A DNA stretch of 64,000 nucleotides from Moniliella sp. 'wahieum' (Eukaryota): assembly GCA_003971905.1 (NCBI GenBank), contig RSEE01000040.1:248001-312000 (forward strand), written 5' to 3'. Under the pieces are notes generated by a model, which saw only the letters and a program-made list of their open reading frames with translations, searched no databases and was not told the origin of the DNA. How positions within the stretch are numbered: position 1 is the first letter of the stretch; every line of letters begins with the position of its first letter. Shown in pieces: positions 2,323 to 44,000 of the stretch. A program made the translations under genes and the position numbers.

Positions 2323-3751
2323 TTAAGCCACCTCACGGTACACCTTGATGGTCTTGTCTGCCCCGCCGGTGATGAGCCGCGTGCCTGATTGGTCAAATGT
2401 GGAGCAAAAGACACCAGCCTCGGCATCAAGCGAGCCAGGTTGCGGAACATCATCAACGCTTTGAAAGGGGGTCCCCGTATCATAATCGTAAAACTTGAGC
2501 TGCCCATTGTCGCCTCCGGCAAACAAAACGCCATCGGCATTGCACGCAAGTGTGTTGACAATGGCACCATGAGCCACAGAGTTAAGGAGAGTGCCCTCGG
2601 GACATTGCCATGTCTTGATGTTGCTTCCCATGGCCGACCCGGAAGCAAAGGAGAACTGGGTAGGGTGTAATGCCAAGGCTCGAACCGACTTGTGGTGTTG
2701 CGTCAATGTCTTGAACGTCTTGCCCGCCGCCAAGTCCCAAAGGCGCACTGTCTGGTCCACCGATCCAGTGATCACTTGCGGATCCGCCTCTTGACACACG
2801 GCACTTGTCACCGCATGGGTGTGCCCACGAAGTACATGGATTTCGGAACGGGTGCGCATGTCCCATACCCGCGCCACACTGTCTCGGCCACCACTTACAA
2901 GGACGTCCAGCGTCGGATGGAGAGAAAGACAGTAGATCCCACTGCGATGGCCCGTGTACTTGCGAATTACCTTGTTCGTCTCCAAATCCCAGCACTTCAC
3001 CTCCTTGTCTTCTCCAGCTGAAAAGAGATAAGGATGCCGCGAGCTGATGGCCAGGCCACGTACCGTCGCCTTGTGGCCTGTCAGACTCAATTTGAGCTCG
3101 CCCGAGGCCAGGTCCCAAATCTGGTCCAGCATGTCAGTATGGTCGTTCAGAGGGAGGAGAGGCAGGTACACACTTTGATCATTTGGTCACCTGCTCCCGT
3201 AGCAAACCATTGGTTGTTGGGTTCCACCGCCACCGCACACGTACCCAGCCGTTGTGGCCAGAGAGGACGCGCATCAGCCTCCAGTCGGGGTGGAAGGCAG
3301 GCTGGTCGTGTCGCGCCTCCAGCTCCTTTTTGCGCACCAGGGCAGTGGACAGGCGCGTGCCACTGCTGCTAGCCAACCTCTCTTCGCTGCGGAAGGCAAC
3401 AAGTGCGTCCGAGGGAGGTGGGGCGGAGGGTGCGACCAACGCATCCGAAGTGGGCTGCGAAAGGGCAGAATTATTATCCGAGGAGGACGCCTTGCGCTTC
3501 TTGTTGTTGGACTCGGGGCCGCGTCCTGCGGCGGCCTGCTGGGCCAACAGAGCGGGAGGGAGTGTTTGCGCCCACGCCCACTCGGAACCAATTTTGCTGC
3601 CTAACTGGGCTCGCACGGCACCTTCTTCGGCCGAAGGCCCTGCCGACACGGACGCAGAGAACAATATGCGGGCGCGCTTGGCACTCGAGTCGGCCAGGCG
3701 CTCGAGCGACGGCTGTGGGGGAGCCGCATTAGGAGGAGGGTGAGCGGACAT
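2323..3751 (-). CDS. PRP46: Pre-mRNA splicing factor Prp46/PLRG1 (WD40 repeats); intron 3121-3173
   Basis: [81 protein letters not shown]. Confidence 0.95.
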
Positions 3752-9366: not shown

Positions 9367-9904
9367 TCACGAACCTGGCGGGGGCAGGTCCAACGTTTTG
9401 GGCTCCGTCTGGACGGGCGAGCGAGAGCGAGAGCGGGAGCGGGAGCGCGTTGCAAACGTGCGCTTTGCCATTCGGCTTGGGCGAGTCAGGGTTGTCGCTC
9501 GACGACCCAGCCCCTGCGGCGGGAGAGGGACTGGCTGCCGTCTCAGACAAGGAGCCCCGCTTGGGTTCAGGCTGCCCAGACACTTGCGCTTCCTCAGTCT
9601 GCCCCGCTCAGTCTGTTCTTCCACGGGCGCGGACGTAGCTTCAGGCTCTTGTCCAGGCTCCTGGTCAGGCTCTTGTTCAGGCTTCTGTTCAGGCTCCTGT
9701 GCAGGCTCTTGCTCAGGCTCAGGCTCGGGCTCTTGTTCATGGTCCTGTTCAGGCTCAGGCGCAGACACCTGTTCAGGCTCCTGCTCCGGCTTCTGCTCGG
9801 GAGCGTGCTCCGACTCCGGCTCAGGCTCAGACTCAGGTGGAGGCTCAGACCGAAGGCCATGCTCGGACCCAGACACCTGGTCAGGTCCCTGCTCCTTCTC
9901 CTGT

Positions 9905-9986
<82 letters not shown>

Positions 9987-12900
9987 TGCTTTGTTCCTGT
10001 TCCTGCTCCGGCTGGCGCCCAGTTTCCTGCTCGTGGGAAGGCTCGCCCCCTCTTCCGTCGAAGGCGACGGCACAGAGGCCGGCGGGGGCTGCGCCTCGGT
10101 GGCCGGCACGGGGGCGGCAGAACGCGGCGGCGAGGGCGGGTCCATGTCCATGCCCACGTCCTCGTCCACGTCCATGTCTACGTCCATGTCCATGTCCTCT
10201 TGCTTGTCCTCTTGCTTGTCCTCGTGCTTGTTTTCGTGCTTGTCCTCTTGCGTGTCCGACGACGGCGCAGCGGCACGAGGCGCGTCCCGAGGTGCTGCCT
10301 CGGTCCCAGACGGCCCTCGAGCGTCCCCTGCGGGACTGGCGTCCCGAGCGCGGTCGTCGGCCCGGGTGCCGTGCGGCAGTGACGACGGCGTCGCTGGCTC
10401 CTGTTCCGGCTCGCGTTCCGCCTCTGGTTCTGGCTCTGGCTCTGGCTCTGGCTCTGGCTCCAACGTGGGCGAGTCGCGCAGCTCATCCGACTCTTCCGTC
10501 TGGCCGCGCGGGACGGGGACGGGCGTGGCGCGCTTCTTGCTCGGCTTGGGGGTGGGCTTGGGGGGCGGGGAGGCGGTGGGCACGCCCGCCACGGGTACGG
10601 GCGGCAGATCAGCCGCTTTGGACCCGCGCGGCTTGCTCTTCGTCCCCCCCGACGACCTCGGTTTCTTCGCTACGCTCGCCCCCGACGCCGCCGCATCCGA
10701 CGCGCCGCGTTTCTTGCTCCCCGGCCCCGAAGCGGGGGGAGGCAGACCCGACGCGGGAGGCGGTGCCACCCCCACGCTCATGCCCATGCCCATGCCCATC
10801 CCCGCACCGCCAGCGCCAGGCCCAAGAGCGCCGCTGCGCCATCATCTTCGCGCGAGCGCGCCGTGGTACGCACGGAAGACGTGAGCGGGGTGTCCGAGTC
10901 GCTCTCCCACCCGCCGCGGGGCTTGGCCGCCGGCCCAGGCGCCGACTTGCGCCCGGCCGTCTTCTTCTTGCCCTGTGCGGCGGGGGCTGCGGTCGGGGTC
11001 GGGGTGGAGGCCGAGGCCGAGGCCGAAGCCGAGGCGCGCGGCTTGCGTTTCCGGCCCGAGCCGGCGGCCGGCGAGGCGGGACCAAGCTCAGTTGCGCCTG
11101 CGCCCGGGCCGGACGGGGTCTTTTTGCGCGTGCGTTTCTTTTTGTCCTTGTCGTCCTTTTTCGTCTCGGCGCCCGGCCGGTACCCGCACCGGTACCCGCA
11201 CCCGCGCGCGAGGGCGACGACGCACCACCCACTGCTCGCTCCGAGCTTTCGGCCACCGACACGGCCGCCGAAGGAGGCCGGTGCACCGGTTCCGTTTCCG
11301 GCGGCCGCGGCGGGAAGAAAGGAGCGCGACCGAGGCCCATCGCCCCTGACCGAGCTCCGCCCGGCGGCGGGCAGGGGACGAGGCCCAGTCGGCTCGGCTC
11401 GGATCGAGCGGCGGCGGCGCATCGTACCCGCCCGCGGGTAGGGCGGCGGCGGGAAGGAAGACGGAGAGCCATATGGCGGAGGGTAGGCAGCTGCGGATGG
11501 AGCGGAGGCGGGGGCGGGCCCATGGGGTGCGAGCTGCCGAGGCGATGAGATCCATCTGCCGGACGCGGCGCGCCCAGGGCCGACACGCCCGGCGGTCCCG
11601 AGGGCGCGTACGCCGGTCGAAATTCGCGCTCGGGCGGCGGGAAGCGGTGGAGGTCCATGCTGGGGTGCTCATGCTGCGGAGGAGGTAGTCGGACTCGGTA
11701 GAAGGAGGGTAGCCGTTGGAGCGTCGCGGAGGAGGCGGGAGCAGAGGACCGTTGCGCCCGACGGGAGGCGGCGAGGCAGGCGACGCATGCAGGCCATTGG
11801 CCACAGCGGCCGAGGCCGTGGGCAGGGGACTGTAGTCGCACACCGACGCCGGTGCCCGAGCCGAGGGCGAAGTGGATTCCGCCGGCTCCCCTGGCGCAGC
11901 GCAGCAATGCGTTTCCTGAATATAAAGGTTGTTGGGTCCAGGTTGAGAGCGCGCATGTACGCGTCGAGCGCGTCGGCGCGCTGTGTTGCACGACTCGTAG
12001 AGGTGGCCCAAGTCGACCAGATCTCGGGGATGTCGGGGTGAGACGAATGGCGCGCGAGTACGCGTCGAGCGCGTCGCGGTACTGGTGGATGGTGTAGCAA
12101 TGCGCCGATGGACGACCAAAATTCGGGATCCTTGTTGTTGCGGTACACGGCTTGCTGGTAGGCCTCGTACGCCTTTTCGTAGTTGTTCGAGGCCATGTAG
12201 GCGCGTCCGAGGAAGTACCAACTCTTGGCGTCGTCGGCGTCCGATTCGAGCGAGGCAGTCAGCAGCTCCACCGCACGGTCTTGGTCGGTGAAGCCAGTGT
12301 GGGGCTGGTGGTAGAGCCAACCCAGCTGTTGGAGCACCTTGGCATGGGTCGGGATGCTGGCCAGCACATTCTCGTACGCCTCTTTGGCGGCCACAAACTG
12401 CCGGTCCATCTCGCACACATGGCCGATTTGGAACCAAATGTCGACCTGGGTCAAGGGAGGCGGTGGGTTGGGGAGGATGTAGCGGAAGCACTCGTTGGAG
12501 GCGGCGTATTTCTCCTGCTGTTTGTAGATGATGCCGAGGCGGAAGTAGATCTCGTTGGCCTTGTCATAGTCGGGGTCAATGCGGACGACGGAGGCAAAGG
12601 CCTCCTCGGCATGGTCCAGACTGCCGTATCGGTCGTAGAGGATGCCAATGCCGTACCAGAGGCGGGGCTCTTTGGGGTTGGGGAGGTGGTAGAGGGCTTG
12701 CTGGTAGGCCATGTAGGCCTTCTGGAGGTCGTCGAGCATCAGGTAGCAGTGGCCCAGCGCGCCCCAGGCCTCGCCGTCGTCGGGGGCGAGGGCGAGGGCC
12801 TGCTGGAAGGCGTCGACGGCGAGGGGGTAGTCGTCGTTGGCGCGGTGGACGGCGGCGACGCCCTTGAGGGTGGGGACCGAGTGGGGGTTGTGGCGGAGCG

Positions 12901-13047
12901 CGTGCTGGTACGCATCGAGCGCCTCGGCGGAGGCGGCCATGGCATCGCGGCGCTGGCGATGGCGAGCCAGGCCTGCTCGTTGGCGGCGGCGAGGCGGGCG
13001 GCAGCGGGGTGGGGGGGGGTGGGGGGGGCGGGCGGCGGCGGGAGCAT
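9367..13047 (-). CDS. SSN6: General transcriptional corepressor Ssn6/Cyc8 (TPR repeats) with long P/E/Q-rich C-terminal tail; 3' end approximate
   Basis: ANEQAWLAI; WGALGHCYLMLDDLQKAYMAYQQALYHLPNPKEPRLWYGIGILYDRYGSLDHAEEAF; NEIYFRLGIIYKQQ; SWYFLGRAYM; YEAYQQAVYR. Confidence 0.93.
9907..9984. repeat. (CTGCTC)13 microsatellite, poly-EQ in the Ssn6 tail; flanked by degenerate 12-nt PEQE repeats (~9640-9850)
   Basis: Direct count of perfect CTGCTC units. Confidence 0.95.
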
Positions 13048-14265
13048 GGCCGGGGGGGGGGTGGGGGGGGGGGGGCACGCGGACGGAGGGATGGTTGAGC
13101 GGAGGAGGGAGGATGGATGATGGATGACGGCGGGGGCTGGCAGCTGAACTTGGGAGCGCAGCTGAGCTGGGCTGGTGTGCTGCGTTGGGGCCACCGCCAG
13201 ACAGCCGGCGCAGGGCACGGCGCCTGTGTGCTGCTGCTCTGAGAGGGCGATGGGGTCGCTGATCGTCAGCGGTGGCCTGCAGGTGCGAGCATGCGCGGCT
13301 GGGCGGCAGCCACTGTGGTGTGATGCCGGCCCTGGCCTGTCCCAGCGCCCGCCTGGCCCAGCGCCCGCCTGGCCACCGTGTCACCCTGGCTGCCACCTGT
13401 CCCATGTGCCCCCCGCGACCAGCACCTGGCCACCCCCCGCCTCGCGCCACCCACAGCGCCCATCGTCCAACGCTTCCCACTGCCAGCGCTCGTCCATTGG
13501 GGCAGCTGTCCTGCTGGTACAAGCGGCCGCAGCACAACATAACGTGTAACATGCAACCGGTAACCCGCTCCGGCAGGAACACTTGCCACCTTGACACATG
13601 CCGCTTAAACCGTACAAAAGCTTCCACTTGCAGCTCGACTGCCGAGAGCGTGAGAGCCTGCGAGATCTGAACTGGCCCAGGCGAGAGTCGCGACGCAACG
13701 ACGGGCGCCAGACACGCCCAGGCGGGCGAGGCGGAGAAAGCGGACAGCAAGGCAGCCCACGCCTCAACGTTCAACCGACGATTTGACTACGCTGTCCTCG
13801 TGCGGCTGCGACGGCGGGGCTTGGCCGGGGTTGCCCCCACTAGCCACTAGCACACTCGGCCACGCTGCCTACGCGCCTACACGCCTACGCCTACGCCTAC
13901 GCCTACGCCCATCCGACGCCCCTGGCCTCCGCATCAGCCATGCGCACACCAGCACATCACGCGACACGCCGCCACTCCAGCGCTGCCCAGCTGCGCTCGG
14001 CCGGTGCGCAGCTGGCGCAGCCTCACACTGCCCCCGCGCCCACGCCCCCCCAAATCCGCCCCGGGCACCAGCACGCCCTCGGCCCTCGGCGCCCTCTTTC
14101 CGCCCGCCGCAGCCGCGTGCCCAGGCGCTCCACCACGGGGCGCTTGGCTGTGCGTTGGCCGTTGCCCGTTCCTTTCCCTCGCCGCCGTCGCCCCGCCCGC
14201 CGTCGCCCCGCCCGCCGCCCTCATGCCGCCCCCTCCGCGCCGCAGCCACACCATTGCGCCGCCCC

Positions 14266-22042: not shown

Positions 22043-23884
<1,842 letters not shown>

Positions 23885-33945: not shown

Positions 33946-34892
33946 ATGGGCACCGCCTCTGATCCTGCTCCCGCCGCGGGCACCACCCGCGCGCCCCGCC
34001 CAGCGACCTTCCTCCCTCCTACGACGAGTCGGTAGGCCTTGGTCTGGATTCCGCCCCGCCTCCGGCTCCGGCTCAAGCCTCTAGTGCTAGCAGCTCCCAT
34101 CCGCCTCCCTTGCCAAGCGTCCACCCCTCCCACCGTCCCCACAGCTCCACTCCTGCCACACCCCTGGCCGCGTCGCTACCCCCTCCAGCCCTGCTCCCAG
34201 CGCAAACTCTGGCCCGTTCATCCCACCTCCAGGTCCCGGAGAAGACAAGCGCCCGCTTCCGTCTGGGTGGATCCGCCAGTTCGATCCTGCCCGCGGGCAT
34301 CCTTTTACGTCGACCAGCGCGGCAACAATGGTGCAGGTCGCAGCACGTGGGTGCACCCCTTCCTCGATCCACAGTACCTTGCCTCGCTCCCCCCCCAGCA
34401 AAGGAAGGTGATCGAATGGGAGAACACTGTGCAGCGGATGCGCAGTCTGGGCGTGGACACTTCTTTGGCCACGCCACCTCCGGCTGTCAGTGACGCTCAG
34501 GACGCGTTGCATTCAGGCAAGACATCTACCGTGCCTCAGGTGGGAGATCCTAAGCGTAAGATGGGCCGGAAAGAGCGCAAGGCTATGGAACGCAAGCAAG
34601 CGGAAACGTTCGCTCAGGCGCAAGCGCGGTTGAACCGCGCCTTTGTTGAAGCCTCCCGTACTGGCCGAGCCATTTTTCTCCAACGCGATGCGGATGGGAA
34701 AGACGTGGTCGTGTTGCCGCCACGCACCTCTCCCCCCGGTGTACCAGATCAATTCCTTTACTTGATTCAGGACCCGCGCTTGAAGTGCATTCGCTCCGGC
34801 AACGGGCAGCCTATGATTGTGCACAAACACAATAATGGAGCGATCGTTGGCGGCATTGTGGGCGGGGCTATTTTGGAGCTCTTTTGCTTTGA
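33946..34892 (+). CDS. WW-domain protein with N-terminal PPxY and hydrophobic Gly-rich C-terminus
   Basis: RPLPSGWIRQFDP..FYVD...RSTWVHPF (WW, ~34245-34362); LPPSYDE at ~34008-34028; ends GAIVGGIVGGAILELF. Confidence 0.75.
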
Positions 34893-35734
34893 TCGGCCCG
34901 CTTCCCCACCATCTCGATCGTTGTGTTGGCACATTTCCTCGGATGGATGCCCAAGCGGGTGGCCAATTGCGTGGCTTCTGAGCATGCGTCGCGCCTGGAC
35001 TTTTTGTTCTTACTTGCATGGGTTTGGTCCTTCCTCTTTATATCTGGATTGCCGAAGCGTTGTATGCTTTCTTGGCCTGCTCCCGCCGACCTAGTCTCTC
35101 TTCGATTCATCCATGCATGACTTCGTTTACCCTTTCTGCTCATCGTGCGGTGGCTTATGGAGAGCTGGGACCTTGTTGAGACAAAGATGGTGCATATAGA
35201 AGACAGGATCGGGCGCGTGCCGGCGTGGTGGCATGGTGTGCGGAAGACAATACCCTGGGCCACAACCGGACTCTTTCCTTTGCTCAAGCGTCGCCATTCA
35301 ATCCTGATCCATGTGTTTTCGCTTGGTGTGGACTGCATCCGCCCGAAGTGCTGCCCAAAATGCTGCCCAAAACCAAAATGTTGGTCCAAACTCGTCGCGT
35401 CGCTGGCGTGCAATTTGAAACCAAGCGTATGCGACGGACACATCCGTCGCGCTTGCGCACTCGGCGGGCGGGGCACTGGGCGGCTGCTGTGCTGTGCCAA
35501 ATGTGCCGTCTGAGCACGGAAACACGCCGCGTGCGGGACGCGGGACGCGTGACGGGCGCGCGTGATGGTCGCGGCGACGGACCATCAGACAATGGCCGGA
35601 TGGTTGCGCCGGCCACTGGACACTCAGAACTCAGAACCGCCCTCCACTCTGCTCGACCAGCAGAACACCCCCCCACGCCATCGTCTGCGTCGCCCGTGTC
35701 CTCCCAGCGTCCTGGCCACCGCCTGCGCCCAGCG

Positions 35735-38700
35735 ATGCCATTCCCCCCCCGCCCGCCCGCTCCTGGCCCCGGCGCAGACCCCCGCCCGACGCGGACGCCA
35801 TGCCGCGCCGCTCCCCCTTCAGTGTGCCGGGTCTCCCCGCCAGCACCTAGGCGCGGCACGAGGAGAGCGTGCGCCGGCTGCATAAGGAAGGCGTCAACGG
35901 CGTTGGTGCCAGCACCATCGACATGTATCGCTCCAAGGTGCGTGGCTATATCGAGTTTAATCTTCAACTCGCCCTCCACGAAGACAAGCTGCCCTCCCTG
36001 TCTGCGTATGCCGACGACCCCGTGCAGTTCAAAATACAGTTCGAGCAACGGTGCGTTTCCTCCTCGTGCCCCGACCAGTTCTGCCTTCAGTGGTTCGTGG
36101 TCGGCCCATTGACACGCTACTCGGCAGGACACTGGCCACAGACCTCAACCTTGCCACGTTTCTCCAAGCGCAGGCCAAGCACGGCAGGGCCCTGACGGAG
36201 TACCTCAGCACCTGCTTTGACAATCGCATATCCTCAGGGCAGCTTGCGCAGGCGCAGCTTCCCCCTGGGTTTCCAAACCGAGGGATCCTCCCCCTGGGAC
36301 GGACGGGCCGAACAAGCGGCGAGCAACGCAAGCCAACCAGTTCCCTCGGCCCGAGGCGCAAGACGATGGTGGGTTTCAAGAGCCTGAACCCTTCCGGTCG
36401 GGCGCCGGGACCCAAACAGACGTCCATTACGCACCTGCCTCACTGCTCTCCGAGTCAGCTGTGACGTACCTCCACAAGTACCAGGGCAGGTTGTTTGATC
36501 TCAAGGAGGGGTTCACGTGGCTCGATGTCTTCCCCCCCAGCCCGCGTCAAGGTCCCCATACCCAAATGGCTCTCAAGACCGAGCGCAAATCGGACGGCAA
36601 GGCTCAAAAGGAAATCCTTGGGGCCGACCAAATGGTGGGTTGTTTTCTCGCTCCAATTTTTTGTTCGCAGTTGATGCTAACGTGTGTCTCAGGTTCCTCC
36701 CGTGATGGCTACTCGCTCAAGGAGCTAGAGACAATTCTGGCCACTTGCTTGGACAACACGCGTTCGTATACGGCAGGCATTCGGGACCACGCGATGGCCT
36801 GCCTGTCGCATTACTGTCTGCTTCGCGGCGAGCACGTGCGCGGGATTCTGCTCATGGACTGTTTGCCTCTCACTCTTCCTATGTCCGAGGCGCCACTGAG
36901 CCAGCCGAGGCGCTGCAAGTTATGTTGCCGAATGGAAGGGCTACCCGGGGGGTTCGAAACGAGCGATGGGTACGATGCGTCACAAGGATGCCAACCTATG
37001 TTGCATCTCGTCTTTGGCGCGCCATTTTTTCTTCGCTTGCAAGTCTTAAGGGAGCGCCGGCCTAGAGGGTGGGGCGATGGGATTGTCTGCCCTTGACCGA
37101 ACCCGAGTCGTGGCTCACCTACCCGGTTTTCCCGGGCAACGAATCCCCAGGGGCACGCCGGAGCAAGCCTCCCTCCATTGTTATGGAGGGGAACGGTGTG
37201 GCAGACGCTGGGGAGGACATTGTGGATGATGCTATTGAGGACGATGGAGAAGTCGATGGGCAGGATGATCGCGTGGAAGGCGCGGAGGAGGCCCCCGAGG
37301 ATGGCATGCAAGACGTCGATGACACAGAGGACGCCACGGAGGATGGCCCGCATGAGGGGGCCGAGGACGTCGCGGCCACTACTACTACTGCCAAGTCCAA
37401 GCGACCGATTGGCACATCAATAATGACGGACCACGGTTATTATTCCGCGGTGTTGCGGTACCTGACAGTGGCGGGCATCAACAGTGGAAGGAAAACTGAC
37501 ATTTTCCGTTGGAGCGCCGTTCGCATTGCCGATATGCTGGGGGTACCCGAGGATTCCATTCGCAGGGCTGGCAACTGGAATGTCTCGCCCCCCTTGCATC
37601 ACCTTGACAACATGTCCATGCCCTTTGTGCGCGCCTTGAATGGATGGGCTCCCAAATGTGGTGCCTACTTCCTTCCCCGTGCCCAACTCGACCCCCCTGA
37701 TGTTCTGCTCAACCAAATCTTTCCTGACTTGGACGACGAGGAGAAAAAACTTGATGCGGCACTCAAGGGTGGAACCCGTCGGCGCCCAAAGAGGGAAGAA
37801 GCGTACCCACCAAGGAACTGAGGTCAGCACGAGACGAGACCACCTTCTGATGGCGAAAGAGTTTGCCAAATTGCTAAGGATGTTTCGACGAATCATCCTT
37901 CAAGACTCTCCCTTTTGGTCTGACACCAGATGCACCCGCCATATCCTCAAGTTGCGCGTCTTTCAGTCGCCGGAGTATCAGAAGTGGTCTCAGGAAATCA
38001 AGACATACGTCGAGCAGCAGCCTGTGCCGGTGAATCCTTCCTTTGGGCGGGAGGCCTCAGATCACGGCACTTGTGCAGCATGGTTTCGGGCTGGTCAATA
38101 ACCGCTTGGGCGCGATGGAGACTGGGTTGGAGAAGGTGATTGAGGAGCAAGAAAAAAACGCATCTCTGACGAAGCAGACAGCGAAAGTGGTGGGCAAGTC
38201 GCTTCCCAATTTCCAATCGTCAATTGTGAGCCTTGCTCAGGAGACGAATCGGCTGTGCGCACGAGACCATTTCGTTGCGGCACAGGTTGAACACCTTCGA
38301 ACCGAAGTGCAGGACCTCAAGAGCCTTCTGACCACCATCGCGGACCATATCGGTGTTCCACTGGCGGAGGGCAATGGCCCACCGTCCCGTGTACCTCGCC
38401 GTGCGCCACGATTTCCCGCCACCGCTCCTGCGCATACGCCGCATGATTCGCCCGGGCTAGCTGGACGTACGGCTCCCCTGGGCCTGCCACAGAGGGAAGT
38501 GTTCATCCTGCTCCCTTCCCCGATGCAATTCCGGCCCCAGAGGTTACCGCCGCCAACCGTGGAGGCGCCAATGGGTCTTCTCCACCTTCCGGACGTCGTG
38601 GGGAACCCGTTGCTGGTGCCGATGCCTCTCTCCCACCTGCGCCTGCGCACAACCCCGTTGCGGCCGAGTGCGATGCTCTGCTTCAAGCGACTGATCGCGC

Positions 38701-39765
38701 GACTCGGGATCCCTCAGCGCCGCCGCCCTTTTCCTAGCGTACTCACGTTGTGTAAGCGAGTGGGTTGCGTTTCCCAAGTGTGGAGGAGTGGAACAAGGGG
38801 ATGGATGGAGTCCTGTGCTTGCGGGACCAGCTTTTTCCACCTCGAAGCGCGTACCGCGGTCCAAATGGAAAGCCAATGCGTGGCCTCAAGGCACGCAGCA
38901 GTGTCCAAGAAGGACATTTGAAACGCCGTCGCAAGATTGGCGTCCGCATCGACCATCTGATTCGAGCCTACAAGTTCAAACTGACCCCGTCCGAGATTGT
39001 AGGCAGGGTCGAGATCGCCTTCCAGATGCTGAGCACCAACCGGGGCGGATGGACAAAAATCAGCGACAAACTGCACCTGGTTGACGACGCGGATCTCATC
39101 TTACCCCAAGCGGCTTGGACCGCGTCGAAGATTGAGCATGTCAGAACTGTGGCCGAACTGCGAAAAAGAGCACCCCCACCACCTGCTCACACCCCGGCCT
39201 TGACCCCTCCCAGGCCTGCTGCGCATGGCCCCGGCCCCGGCGCCCTCTTGCCCTTCCCGCCCGCCAACGGAGACGTATGGCACTTTCCTTTTCCGGGCGT
39301 CCCCTTTCCTCCCAACCCTGCTCCTACCTTGACCTACCCATCCCGGTCCCTGCCGCATCTCCTGCACCTACCGCACCTCCTGCGCCTACCGCACCTCCTG
39401 CACCTACCACCCCTCTCCCTGCCACCCCTCTCCCTAACACCCACCCTGCTCCGACCGGCCACCCTGCTCCTACCACCCTCCCTGCTCCTACCACTCTCCC
39501 TCCTCCTACCACTTTCCCTCCTCCTACTACCCTCCCTGCCCATCCGCCCCCCCCTGCTCCTACCGCCCAACCTGCTCCCCACCACCCACCCAGCTCCTAC
39601 CACCCAACCTGCTCCTACCACTCTCCTGCTCCTACCGCACCTCCTGCACCTACCGCCCACCCTCTCCCTACCACCCATCTCCCTGCTACCCCTCTCCCTG
39701 CTACCCTCCCTGCTCCTACCGCCACCCTGATCCTACCACACCTGGCCCTGCAGGCTCCTCCCTGA
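35735..39765 (+). mobile_element. Crypton-type (CryptonF-like) tyrosine-recombinase/NDC10_II + GCR1_C gene; a transposon copy or a domesticated derivative
   Basis: DGYS..EL; RDHAMACLSHYCLLRGE (catalytic Arg); MRHKDANLC; AGINSGRKTDIFR..AVRIADMLGVPEDSIRRAGNWN; YFLPRAQLDPP..LLNQIFP; LLRMFRRIILQDS; GCR1_C-like VSQVW-EEWNKGMDG...RRRKI; contains spliceosomal introns. Confidence 0.85.
39340..39730 (+). repeat. Degenerate ~18-nt minisatellite (CCTGCTCCTACCACCCTC-like; PAPTTL units) at the 3' end of the Crypton-type gene
   Basis: Repeated CCTGC(A/T)CCTACC units; translation PAPTAPPAPTAPPAPTTPLP...PAPTTLPAPTTLP. Confidence 0.85.
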
Positions 39766-41020
39766 TTGCGTATGATGGTACACTTTCCTGGCGTTTGAGC
39801 GCACCCCTAGTACATGACCACTGGTCTGTCCTTCCAAAAAGTATCTGCGCGATAATTTCTTCTTGTTGTACTGCTTTTTGCTTAATTGATCTTGTTTTGA
39901 GCAAAGCCGCCGGGTGGACAAAAAGCACAAGCAATACGCCCACAATAAAGCTTGCGCTTCCCTGGGCAGCATAGAAAGCATGTGGGCTATACATTGTCTT
40001 GGGAATGATTGCCGTGTGACATGTGAAGGGCTTGTGCGAAAGGCCATCTGCAGCAAGTAGTAGGTCGGGAGCGTTGAGTGCATGGAACGTTGAGCATGCT
40101 CCGACTGAGTCTGAGTACAGACTGAGTAATGCCCAGCGCCCAGAGTTGCTCTCGCGTGCGACCGAGACTGCCTACTAAGTACAATAGCTGCAACCGACGC
40201 GGCGCAAAGACAGTCGGAAGGAGTTGCTAGTTTGCGGTACGCCGTACGCAGCACGTCCGCCTACCACACACTGCCGCCGGCGCAGTGAGGGTGGGTGGAC
40301 CCGTGTGGGGGTTGCAAACGTCGCAAAGGCACGGTGATAAGATAAGTCGGCCGTTCCCAGCTGGCGTTGGGCGCATTTGTGTTGTCGTGGCGATGCGACC
40401 TGAGACATAACATCTGAGAAATGGGAAATCTACCAGACAGCTGGCGGGGCCTGTATGATCGAGGATCGCATGCATGTGTGTGATGTGGTTTTCAGCGGGC
40501 GCAGCACTCGCCGTTTGCCGGCCTCCGTGCGCATGGGGCCTGGCGAGGCGCCCTGGGACGCGCACTCGGGCGCACTCCGGGCCGAGTCGGGCGGCCGCCG
40601 ACGCAGCGCCCGAGTGGAGGGCCACTGGCCCACAGCCCAGCGCCCAGCCTCCACGGTGCATAACGCATGATGCATGCATGATGCACGCTGCATCGAGTAT
40701 CACACAGACAGGCACAAGGGCGCACAGGGCGACACCAACCGACACCGGCAGGCACAGGGCGGCACAAGCGAGCACAAGCCCGGCCCCGCCGAGAGCATCA
40801 CAGTCGCATGGCGTCAGTGTCTCTTTCTCCGCCCGCCACCGCCCGGCACGGGGGCAGCCGGGCGGCGGCGCCACGCACTGCACGAGCCTGCACGCTGCTC
40901 CCGCCCGAGCCCGCCTGCCGGCCCGCCTGCCTCCGTCTGCTCCCGCCGCCGGCAATGGGCGAGTGCCGCGGACTTGTCCCCCACGCCCACCACCCCCACC
41001 ACTGCCACCGCCAGCTTGCC

Positions 41021-44000
41021 ATGGACGCCGGCCCGCAGGCCCCATCTGTCCCGTCTGCTCCGTCTCCTGCGGCATCTCCACCTGCCGCGCCCCCTCCTCC
41101 CACAGCCCCCACCGCCGCCACCGCCACCGCCACTGCCCCCCGCCCCTCTCGCTCTCGCTCCCGCCTGTCGCCCGTGTCCAAGCGTCAGCTCTCCGAGCGC
41201 GCCATGCACCACGCCGCCGCCCTTCGCGCCGCCCATGCGACTTCGTCCGCACCCTCCGTCCTGCCACTGCCTCCTCGCCTGCCTCACCCTCCGCCACCGA
41301 CCGGCAGGCGGAGGACGACGTGTTTGGCACCATGTCCTTCTCCGATCTGCTCGACACGGATGTTGGCTTGGGCCGCCACCCGAGCAGGACGAGTCGCGCA
41401 GTCCCCTCGCCGCCGAGCACACCCATCCCGAAGCCTCCGCGGCAGCTCCGACCTCAGGCACCCTCGCCTCCGCCCTTTCCCCGCCTGGATGCCAGGCCAG
41501 CACAGCTTCCATCCCTCGTCTTCCCATGCGACTCCCGTGACGCCCCTTCATGCGCCGGGCCCAGTACCCATGGATGCAAACCTGAACCAGCCCTCTGTAC
41601 CAATGCAACAGCCAGGCCAGGGGTTTCCTTTTCCCCAATCGTTGCCCAACTTGGCCAGCAACAGTGTCTTGAATCCCTTTGCTGCTTTGCTCAATGGTCT
41701 CAACCCTGCCTCACAGCCACCAGTAGCGCCACCTGCGCCCGCGACGGCTCCCGGGTTCAACCCATTCCTTGGCTTGCTGCCCGGCATGCTTCCCAACCAG
41801 GCTCCCCTCAACCCGGCCATGCAGCAGCACCAGTATATGGCCGCCATGGTAGCACTCTTGGCCAGCCGCGCTCAGCAAGCTCAGCTGGCGCAGCAGGCTC
41901 AGCAGCAGCAGGCCCAGTTCCCCGCATCTTCTTTCTCCATGCCAAGCTCAGCTGCAGCGCCCGCCACCGCACTTCCACAGGGCAACCCCCTGAGTAATCT
42001 GCTGTTACCCGAGTGGCTTGGCCGGGCCAATGGCCAACCGCCGCTGGGTGCCAGTGGGACCAAGCCCGAGGAGCAGGACCCCGATCTGTACACCTGGCTC
42101 ACTTCTCTTGCCAAGCTGGCCGGAGCGACCCGTACAACAGGAGAGCCTGACTGGTACGCTTTTCGCAGCATCCTTGAGCAAGGCGAGACGGCCGACTTGG
42201 TCGCCACTGCAGGCTTGACGTCCCCGATGGGGCGGGAAACGTAGCGCTTCCCCAGGCAATCTACCGAATGATCCAGGCCAAGGCTTTGGAGGCAGACAAC
42301 AACATGCGGATCGAGGTGTACCGAATTCTCTCCCACCCCCCATTTTACTCTATTACCGAGGGACGGAAGCGCTGACGAATTTGCTGTTGCAATCGGGTTG
42401 CGTGCTGCGTTCATGTAGAATTTAACGTGGCGGTTGATGAACCTTAACTTGCGTAAACGTGATACGCCGCAGACATCCCTCTTTGGTATGGAAGGCTTCC
42501 CTTCAACTTGCCTGGTGCCACCCCCATGTCCGCGCCATCCACGTCACACATGACTCCCTTTACGCCTGCGGCGCGTGCTTCCAACTCGTCGCGTTCTCCC
42601 TCGCGCGGACGCAGCCGTCGCTCGTCACGCGGCGTTACTCCCGATGCACTCGCGGCCTCTTCGCTCATGACGCCGGTACAGCCCGCCCAACCGGCCATCC
42701 TGCTCCGCCCTCTTCGCATGACGAGACAAGCAAGCCAGCAAGCCCAGCACCCCCTTCTCTCGGTCCACATTCCACCAACGCACAGGAGACGCTCCATCCC
42801 CTGGCCCATCTCCCTTGGGCTTCACATCCGCCATCCGCTCCCGCTCCCGCTCGATCGCCTCCCTCTCCACCCGGTGGGCTGGCGCGGCTGACGGATTGCA
42901 CGCTCTCGTTCCCGTCGCCGTTTAGATAGTGGTGACAAGGATCCAACCCAGCTCCTTGATCTTGATAAAGACCACGACGACGAAACTGACGACCCAACAC
43001 GGTACCTCCAAATGATGAGTGCCTCACTCCCTGCGGCCACTGCACTGGCCTTTGGCCAATCCCTGGCTTTGATGAAGGGTTCAAGGCCCCGATCCCGGTT
43101 TGGCAATGAGGATGGAGATGACGATTCCTCCGACGGTGAGCGGGAGCGCCGAAAACGACAAGAGCGCATCCGAGCTGAATTCCGTCGAGCGGTGGTCAAG
43201 GATGCCTTGGAGGTCAACCGTACTGGTCTCTTGTCTCCCACAGCTGGAGATCGACCCCAGCGGACCCAGGCAACTTCTCCAATGTCCCCGACTACGCCCA
43301 CAGCGGGTCAGAGCCATCTCGATGGAGATGGGGCCTGGGAACGTGCTGTTGACCTGCCGACGAGTCTCCTAAACTTGGACGAGAATGGGCACTCCTCCGC
43401 AACAGTGATGGGGATGATGGATCTCAGTATGTTTGAAAACCTGGCTCCTTTGCTTCCTTCCACCCTCCCGAGGCATCCACGGCCTCTCGAGAGGCGCTTG
43501 CATACGGTGCGCCCCCGCGTCTCTTAGCGAGTGTGCCCGGTGCCAACCCGGACGACTTTGCCGAGGCACCAATCAACCATGACCCAGACTGGGACTCCCT
43601 CGTCTGGTACGCAAGACGAGTTTCGATCACAGCCTCTACTCTGCTACGTCTCCCGTGCAACCCTCTCTGCCCCCCATACCCTATCAGGCCAAGCCAGCCC
43701 AGTAGCCTCGCCTGTTATTGGGACAGGCCACCACACACGCGCCCAAAGTTACGCGTTGGGCAAACACGGCCCGCTTTCTGGCCTCCCCGTGCCTTCCTCT
43801 GAACCCCACGCACAAGCGACGAGGAAGCGCTCCCGAGGGGCCATGGATATGGACTTGGATGAGGACATGGGCTCGTCGGCGGTGCGAATTAACAAGGCTG
43901 CCAGGCCACTGCGTCATCTCCCGACCACTGTCGACCAACGTATTGCCGCCGGTCTCAATCGATTTGGCCGACCCATTCCCACACGCCTGCCGGTCAGCCG

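Follow-up and report, generated by a model that had tools for sequence, protein, structure and literature searches.

A CryptonF-type tyrosine-recombinase gene with substituted catalytic residues in Moniliella sp. 'wahieum': a candidate domesticated transposon

The CryptonF-type gene

The stretch of DNA analysed here, referred to as the window, comprises 64,000 nucleotides (nt; 64 kb) of contig RSEE01000040.1 of Moniliella sp. 'wahieum'. Between 35.8 and 39.8 kb on its plus strand lies a gene which, judged from its sequence, is of the CryptonF type. CryptonF elements are DNA transposons of fungi and oomycetes, according to excerpts of Kojima & Jurka 2011 (PMC3212892). The gene of the window has replaced three of the catalytic residues of the Crypton recombinase and is considered here as a candidate for domestication.

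The earlier note on this DNA described a Crypton-type tyrosine-recombinase gene, and this identification was upheld by two profile searches. Pfam matches NDC10_II at 37066-37821 (E 4.2e-8, 33.1 bits; cut-off 26.3 bits), with a second match under the cut-off at 37640-38101 (E 1.1e-3) and nothing relevant in the other six pieces of the gene at 35.7-39.8 kb. A frameshift-aware aligner, custom-written for this analysis, scored the gene at 230 bits against a profile of 38 full-length homologs. The closest clusters in a protein-atlas feature search were also NDC10_II (0.97-0.98).

Homologs were sought among 1.84 billion representative proteins with a 144-residue core (37387-37821) as the query. This returned 330 matches at E<=1e-3; 21 of these reached E<=1e-10, no match reached E<=1e-30, and the best identity was 45%. 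Ten of the homologs were scanned with Pfam; all ten contain NDC10_II and nine contain GCR1_C, which marks the relatives as CryptonF-type proteins. The family profile, with the piece from the window included, finds yeast Ndc10/Cbf3a among the PDB sequences at E 1.5e-21, and reaches Cre only at E 0.32, at the His-to-Tyr region of Cre. The window piece alone has no PDB match at E<=1. A structure model of the half-domain at 37387-37818 has a predicted local distance difference test score (pLDDT) of 74.7 and a predicted template modelling score (pTM) of 0.37. None of 20 Foldseek rows for this model reached E<=0.001, and the best VIA-align score was Z 3.1 for an integron integrase, followed by XerD at Z 2.7.

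The active site

The active-site columns were read from the best 150 hits of the 330, aligned to the family profile, with non-gap rows counted. Frames are named by the start position modulo 3. Three of the diagnostic residues are retained in the window. The box I Arg lies within LLRGE at 36824-36826 (CGC, frame 2) and is Arg in 58/58 homologs. The Arg of the HxxR motif (37507-37509) is found in 141 of 142, and the Trp at 37576-37578 in all 148.

The other three are replaced. At the Lys of the GKTN region, conserved in 73/73 homologs, the window reads GRAT, with an Arg codon (AGG) at 36937-36939; this Arg reads only in frame 1, unlike both adjoining conserved stretches. The first catalytic His (134/139 homologs) is an Asp in the sequence KTDIFR, encoded by GAC at 37498-37500 in frame 1. 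The nucleophile Tyr, present in 148/148 homologs, is a His in WNVSPPLHHL, encoded by CAC at 37600-37602 in the same frame. The R-H-R-Y tetrad is thus R-D-R-H in the window. All of these motif readings had been made in the earlier note, and the positions given there for the LLRGE Arg, the KTDIFR Asp and the WNVSPPLHHL His were correct on rereading.

The residues beside each altered catalytic site agree in frame with the family consensus, and no TAY codon occurs in any of the frames across 37576-37632. Artefacts of frame can thus be dismissed, and the changes are substitutions, as had been claimed. These observations also bear on the simplest alternative, that an ordinary, active Crypton has been given three false catalytic differences by errors in the assembly consensus. 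The assembly is demonstrably error-prone, but its demonstrated errors are indels, and this explanation requires three independent substitutions on exactly three catalytic codons, each within matching flanks and with no Tyr codon in any frame. It is hardly credible.

Formation of a covalent link to DNA through the nucleophile Tyr is the established mechanism of tyrosine recombinases, as set out in excerpts of two papers (PMC3212892, PMC13465315). With the Tyr, the first His and the Lys replaced, this mechanism implies that the protein would be unable to form the link needed for recombination. The product is predicted to be catalytically dead, as the link should not be possible without the Tyr.

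Selectivity of the loss and divergence

The loss of catalytic residues is selective. The recombinase domain has 41 columns that are at least 85% conserved, six of them catalytic, and the window retains 35 of the 41. The six losses are L198C, K242R, N244 (a gap), H333D, Y368 and P456C. Three of the six catalytic columns are lost, against 3 of the 35 others (hypergeometric P 0.031), which leaves 32/35 non-catalytic conserved columns in place. The claim that catalytic residues had been lost with the fold retained is therefore sustained at the level of conserved columns.

A tree of 131 sequences over 106 columns places the sequence of the window as sister to the homolog P0057, with support of 0.77. 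Its terminal branch is 0.94 long, compared with a median of 0.42, a 90th percentile of 0.89 and a maximum of 1.25. No ortholog of the gene was present among 348 candidates in a protein search for longer homologs, and a metagenome scan gave 205 pattern matches, of which none was confirmed.

Structure of the gene

There is no single long open reading frame (ORF) at 35.7-39.8 kb on the plus strand. Instead, stop-to-stop frames of 110-325 codons are found in all three phases. Segments were mapped with an own profile built from 20 full-length homologs, and four were significant: 36692-36895 (frame 2, 36.6 bits), 36951-37034 (frame 0, 21.6 bits), 37426-37758 (frame 1, 101 bits) and 37823-38035 (frame 2, 39 bits). 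All features described below are on the plus strand.

The 5' end is uncertain (35735-35850), with candidate start codons at ATG 35735 (frame 2) and ATG 35801 (frame 1). Exon 1 (35851-36050, frame 1) encodes the N-terminal Crypton motif region, EESVRRL...STIDMYRSKVRGYIEF, which scores 20.7 bits in the frameshift-aware profile alignment compared with 13.0 +/- 1.6 (maximum 16.9) in 40 shuffles. A putative intron of 77 nt (36051-36127, GTGCGT...CAG), read from the letters at its ends, would join frame 1 to frame 0 in phase. Exon 2 (36128-36634) contains a basic Pro-rich linker and then a conserved stretch, SAVTYLHKYQGRLFDL, with a switch from frame 0 to frame 2 located by eye somewhere in 36300-36430. 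The second putative intron, of 58 nt (36635-36692, GTGGGT...GCTAAC...CAG), has homology on either side, and its flanking exons are out of phase by one base, at the acceptor. Both introns are plausible. Further introns called by the aligner at 37126-37365, 38030-38177 and 38499-38717 were rejected, because the aligner could pass over low-complexity insertions there at little cost; the first of the three is open in frame 1.

The first half of the recombinase fold (36693-37096) includes the DGY motif, box I, GRAT in place of GKTN, and MRHKD..C. It is followed by a loop in frame 1 (37097-37425), at a place where the homologs also have a variable loop. Inside it lies an acidic stretch with 28 Asp/Glu per 69 residues (37186-37392). 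The second half of the fold (37426-37758, frame 1) carries KTDIFR, GNWN, HL for YL, YFLPRA and DPP..L..IFP. The end of the NDC10_II-type domain (37823-38035, frame 2; FAKLLRMFRRIILQDS...VFQSPEY) corresponds to positions 274-317 of the Pfam NDC10_II profile.

Downstream, a presumed helical, coiled-coil-like segment in frame 0 (38055-38360) gives a weak profile match of 1.2 bits, and the homologs have such a segment at that place. A Pro/Ala/Arg-rich linker of uncertain frame (38361-38732) leads to a degenerate GCR1_C-like region (38733-39080), with VSQVWR in frame 0 and both EEWNKGMDG and KRRRKIGVRIDHL in frame 2. The gene ends in a Pro/Thr/Ala-rich tail (39190-39765), which contains an 18-nt tandem repeat at 39349-39739 and a stop codon at either 39731-39733 (frame 2) or 39763-39765 (frame 1).

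The acidic loop, the Pro-rich linkers and the tail are extras relative to the homologs. Through such low-complexity insertions the protein path reaches about 1180 codons, compared with 636-864 residues in 20 homologs, or about 1.7 times the usual length. The guanine plus cytosine (GC) content at codon positions 1, 2 and 3 is 0.65/0.47/0.67. The third-position value lies between that of a WD40 gene (0.62) and that of a TPR gene (0.76) of the window, and the composition is both coding-like and host-like. The WD40 gene, which encodes a beta-propeller (2326-3186, minus strand; Pfam WD40 E 5.5e-44), served as a composition reference only. The host-like codon composition, together with the low-complexity expansions, suggests a long residence.

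The architecture also bears on the possibility that the gene is an inactive variant still borne by a mobile Crypton family, either as a non-autonomous copy mobilised in trans or as a competitor for DNA binding that damps transposition. The retention of the complete Crypton architecture, both putative introns included, would be explained by such a variant, and so would a conserved DNA-binding scaffold from which catalysis has been lost. However, the Tyr in all 148 aligned homologs means that the relatives show no sign of an inactive lineage of this kind, and the extended length suggests long residence. The window contains only this one CryptonF-type locus and no second copy. A mobile inactive variant is accordingly regarded as improbable.

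The GCR1_C-like region

The presence of a GCR1_C-like domain had been proposed in the earlier note. This stands only as a weak likeness at the C-terminus, and the Pfam GCR1_C profile gives no match to the gene pieces at E values up to 10. Single frames of the region gave nothing against the own C-terminal profile. When it was read with an X over the break near 38786, the score was 13.0 bits, with an hhalign probability of 57% over 26 columns. Frameshift-aware alignment gave 18.5 bits at a penalty of 9 (null 12.6 +/- 1.9, maximum 20.6) and 22.8 bits at a penalty of 5 (null 12.5 +/- 1.4, 60 shuffles).

The three conserved columns of the GCR1_C part are all changed on the alignment path, and two of them would be retained in an alternative frame-2 reading. 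The domain appears to be degenerate or heavily garbled. A path through it with three or four extra frame changes was treated as a possibility only, because the choice among three frames may over-fit.

Frame changes and assembly errors

The picture of a clean ORF with introns was not borne out: the two putative introns are plausible, and at least nine frame changes are needed to read the gene. In total, 9-12 changes fall within 3.9 kb, 5-6 of them in about 1.1 kb of the conserved part. The aligner called four -1 changes, near 36897, near 36950 (a run of six G), near 37033 (a run of six T) and at 37070-37092, and one +1 change near 37756. Further changes were seen by eye from frame 2 to 0 near 38040, from 0 to 2 near 38786 and from 2 to 1 near 39330. 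None of the 12 path segments, with about 1180 codons, contains an in-frame stop. Upstream of them there is an in-frame TAG (35848-35850), placed after ATG 35801 and ahead of the first residues with homology. This may be either a genuine nonsense codon or a codon that precedes a frame error.

Similar breaks occur in two other genes of the window that are surely functional. The phosphoglucomutase gene (22214-23881, plus strand) is spread over three frames overlapping by 2 nt and 1 nt, and has two breaks in 1.67 kb, where 2 nt (at 22623) and 1 nt (at 23063) have been lost. The frame switches truncate its Pfam domains: PGM_PMM_I stops at profile position 119 of 138 and PGM_PMM_II at 93 of 103, and PGM_PMM_III begins at position 6. 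The TPR gene (11672-13786, minus strand), which presumably resembles the Cyc8/Ssn6 co-repressor, has four frame changes within about 170 nt, at about 12100-11980. The PDB TPR alignment of its ORF halts at residue 562, and the next frame contributes a stretch of 21 residues (12034-12096) that aligns to positions 15-30 of TPR_1 with E 0.003. This gene still appears as one ORF of 705 codons because GC-rich alternative frames are open; errors also occur outside homopolymers. Homopolymers of G or C that reach 15 nt lie at 12982-13075 and elsewhere. The window has 25 runs of at least 8 nt, and these are likely hot spots for consensus errors.

Host genes thus show 6 breaks in about 2.8 kb, and their break density does not differ significantly from that of the Crypton-like gene (Poisson P about 0.1-0.2). 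Homopolymers of at least 5 nt number 18 in the Crypton-like gene and one in the phosphoglucomutase gene, and three of the five best-placed breaks of the Crypton-like gene are at 6-nt homopolymers. As breaks of the same kind are found in the phosphoglucomutase and TPR genes, those of the Crypton-like gene fit assembly errors. The earlier attribution of indels in this DNA to the assembly is compatible with this result, and the breaks are uninformative either way on pseudogene status. Since the assembly breaks housekeeping genes, a frameshift in it is no proof of a pseudogene.

These data bear on a further explanation, that a Crypton insertion has died and is decaying, so that the gene is a relic with genuine frameshifts and a genuine upstream TAG, its catalytic changes being part of neutral decay. 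The local density of the breaks, higher in the conserved part than in the host genes, the TAG, the degenerate GCR1_C-like region, the long terminal branch and the failure of the protein and metagenome searches to find an ortholog all favour it. However, decay that replaced three of six catalytic codons should have erased many of the 35 other conserved positions, and only three are lost. It should also have left stop codons, and there are none on the path. The breaks are not significantly more frequent than in the host genes, and they are changes of one or two bases, of the kind seen in the functional genes. A young dead copy would require three chance hits on catalytic codons, and three assembly substitutions confined to those codons are less likely still. 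A relic is therefore considered unlikely, although it carries appreciable weight.

Neighbouring features

The earlier note had the gene flanked by a WW gene (34036-35094, plus strand) and a GATA gene (40459-42244, plus strand). These designations found no backing, as Pfam gave no match at E<=0.01 in any of the 58 flanking pieces scanned. Three long overlapping frames at 40.4-42.2 kb suggest either more frame errors or GC-rich open alternative frames. Elsewhere in the window, imperfect long repeats with a 12-nt period (CAGGCTC/CTGCTC type) occupy 9617-10040 and 10369-10464, within an open frame of 771 codons that has no Pfam match.

Domestication as the best reading

Domestication is the reading preferred here, with a probability of roughly one half. 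The gene would be a resident, catalytically dead CryptonF derivative that is retained for a non-catalytic role. This is the most likely reading because the scaffold positions are retained and there is no stop on the path. The family assignment, the three substitutions and their selective pattern are shown by the data; retention by selection and a DNA-binding role are inferred.

The proposed history would begin with a CryptonF transposon gene that became resident and retained the Crypton layout, namely an N-terminal domain, an Ndc10-type recombinase fold, a helical segment and a degenerate GCR1_C-like region. The acidic loop, the Pro-rich linkers and the tail would have been gained. Recombination would have been abolished by the replacement of the nucleophile Tyr by His, of the first catalytic His by Asp and of the Lys by Arg. 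The protein may contact DNA with both its recombinase clamp and its C-terminal domain, probably in multimeric form, and might act as a transcription or chromatin factor, like Gcr1 and Ndc10.

Several points weigh against domestication. The frame changes, of which there are at least nine, include four clustered in about 200 nt and possibly three or four in the GCR1_C-like part; if they are real, the gene is a pseudogene. The TAG before the first homologous residues and the lack of a Pfam GCR1_C match also count against domestication. The enrichment of losses at catalytic columns is modest (P about 0.03) and has one sequence as its sole basis. All 148 aligned homologs retain the Tyr, the closest of the relatives is only 45% identical, and no ortholog with the same catalytic substitutions was found among the representatives or in the protein and metagenome searches. 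The terminal branch, long though not extreme, could reflect a new function but equally a relaxation of constraint.

A narrower claim may be added to the preferred reading of a retained, inactive CryptonF derivative. The gene may be the product of an exaptation, independent and specific to its lineage, in which a fungus that is not a budding yeast co-opted an entire CryptonF protein; the result would be a pseudo-recombinase with the whole transposon architecture. This is put forward tentatively, at somewhat less than even odds.

If domestication is true, the gene is a further case of a known phenomenon, for which Gcr1, Ndc10 and the DUF3504 genes are precedents. On the narrower claim, it would be a living intermediate of how DNA-binding proteins of the Ndc10 and Gcr1 types arise from Cryptons. 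The full transposon layout would then correspond to an early stage of the domestication path. The gene would also be a natural dead-site variant for asking what role the recombinase clamp has without catalysis.

Comparison with known systems

In budding yeasts, Crypton recombinases have been converted into regulators of the host on at least four occasions, and in animals this has happened several times, as reported in excerpts of one survey (PMC3212892). The same excerpts name Gcr1, Msn1/Hot1, Cbf2/Ndc10 and Cdg1 as the yeast cases and the DUF3504 genes as the animal ones. Crypton-derived regulators in other fungi have so far been little explored, according to a 2026 paper (PMC13465315). The literature search, which did not cover subscription journals, turned up no paper describing a host gene of Crypton origin that combines NDC10_II with GCR1_C in any organism outside Saccharomycotina.

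The CryptonF transposons themselves, as far as the excerpted descriptions go, code for a single protein, in which a GCR1_C-type region comes after a tyrosine-recombinase domain of the NDC10_II type, and they contain spliceosomal introns. The best hits of the gene of the window have this protein plan, which the gene itself resembles, with two putative introns; it differs in having R-D-R-H for R-H-R-Y, Arg for Lys, a degenerate GCR1_C part and the longer path given above. In a single copy, the 6-bp terminal direct repeats of CryptonF elements would be indistinguishable from chance matches.

Ndc10/Cbf2 of yeast, also known as CBF3 subunit A, is similar to the gene of the window in having a Crypton-related recombinase fold without a working active site; its C-terminus is of the GCR1_C type, to which the C-terminal part of the gene of the window bears a weak likeness. 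The gene of the window is closer to live Cryptons (38-45% identity) than to Ndc10, and no result implies a kinetochore role. Gcr1, Msn1/Hot1 and Cdg1 of Saccharomycotina are CryptonF-derived host regulators for which, in the excerpts of the survey (PMC3212892), GCR1_C is the common DNA-binding domain and the sole domain shared by all. The well-kept part of the gene of the window is instead the recombinase fold, and its GCR1_C-like part is weak.

The animal DUF3504 genes (KCTD1, KIAA1958, ZMYM2-4, QRICH1 and WOC) are domesticated recombinase domains in which the catalytic Tyr has been lost, and mostly the His as well, in the account excerpted from the same survey (PMC3212892). They are thus similar to the gene of the window in their losses. 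They belong to the CryptonA lineage, have lost the second Arg and are without GCR1_C, whereas the gene of the window retains both Arg residues.

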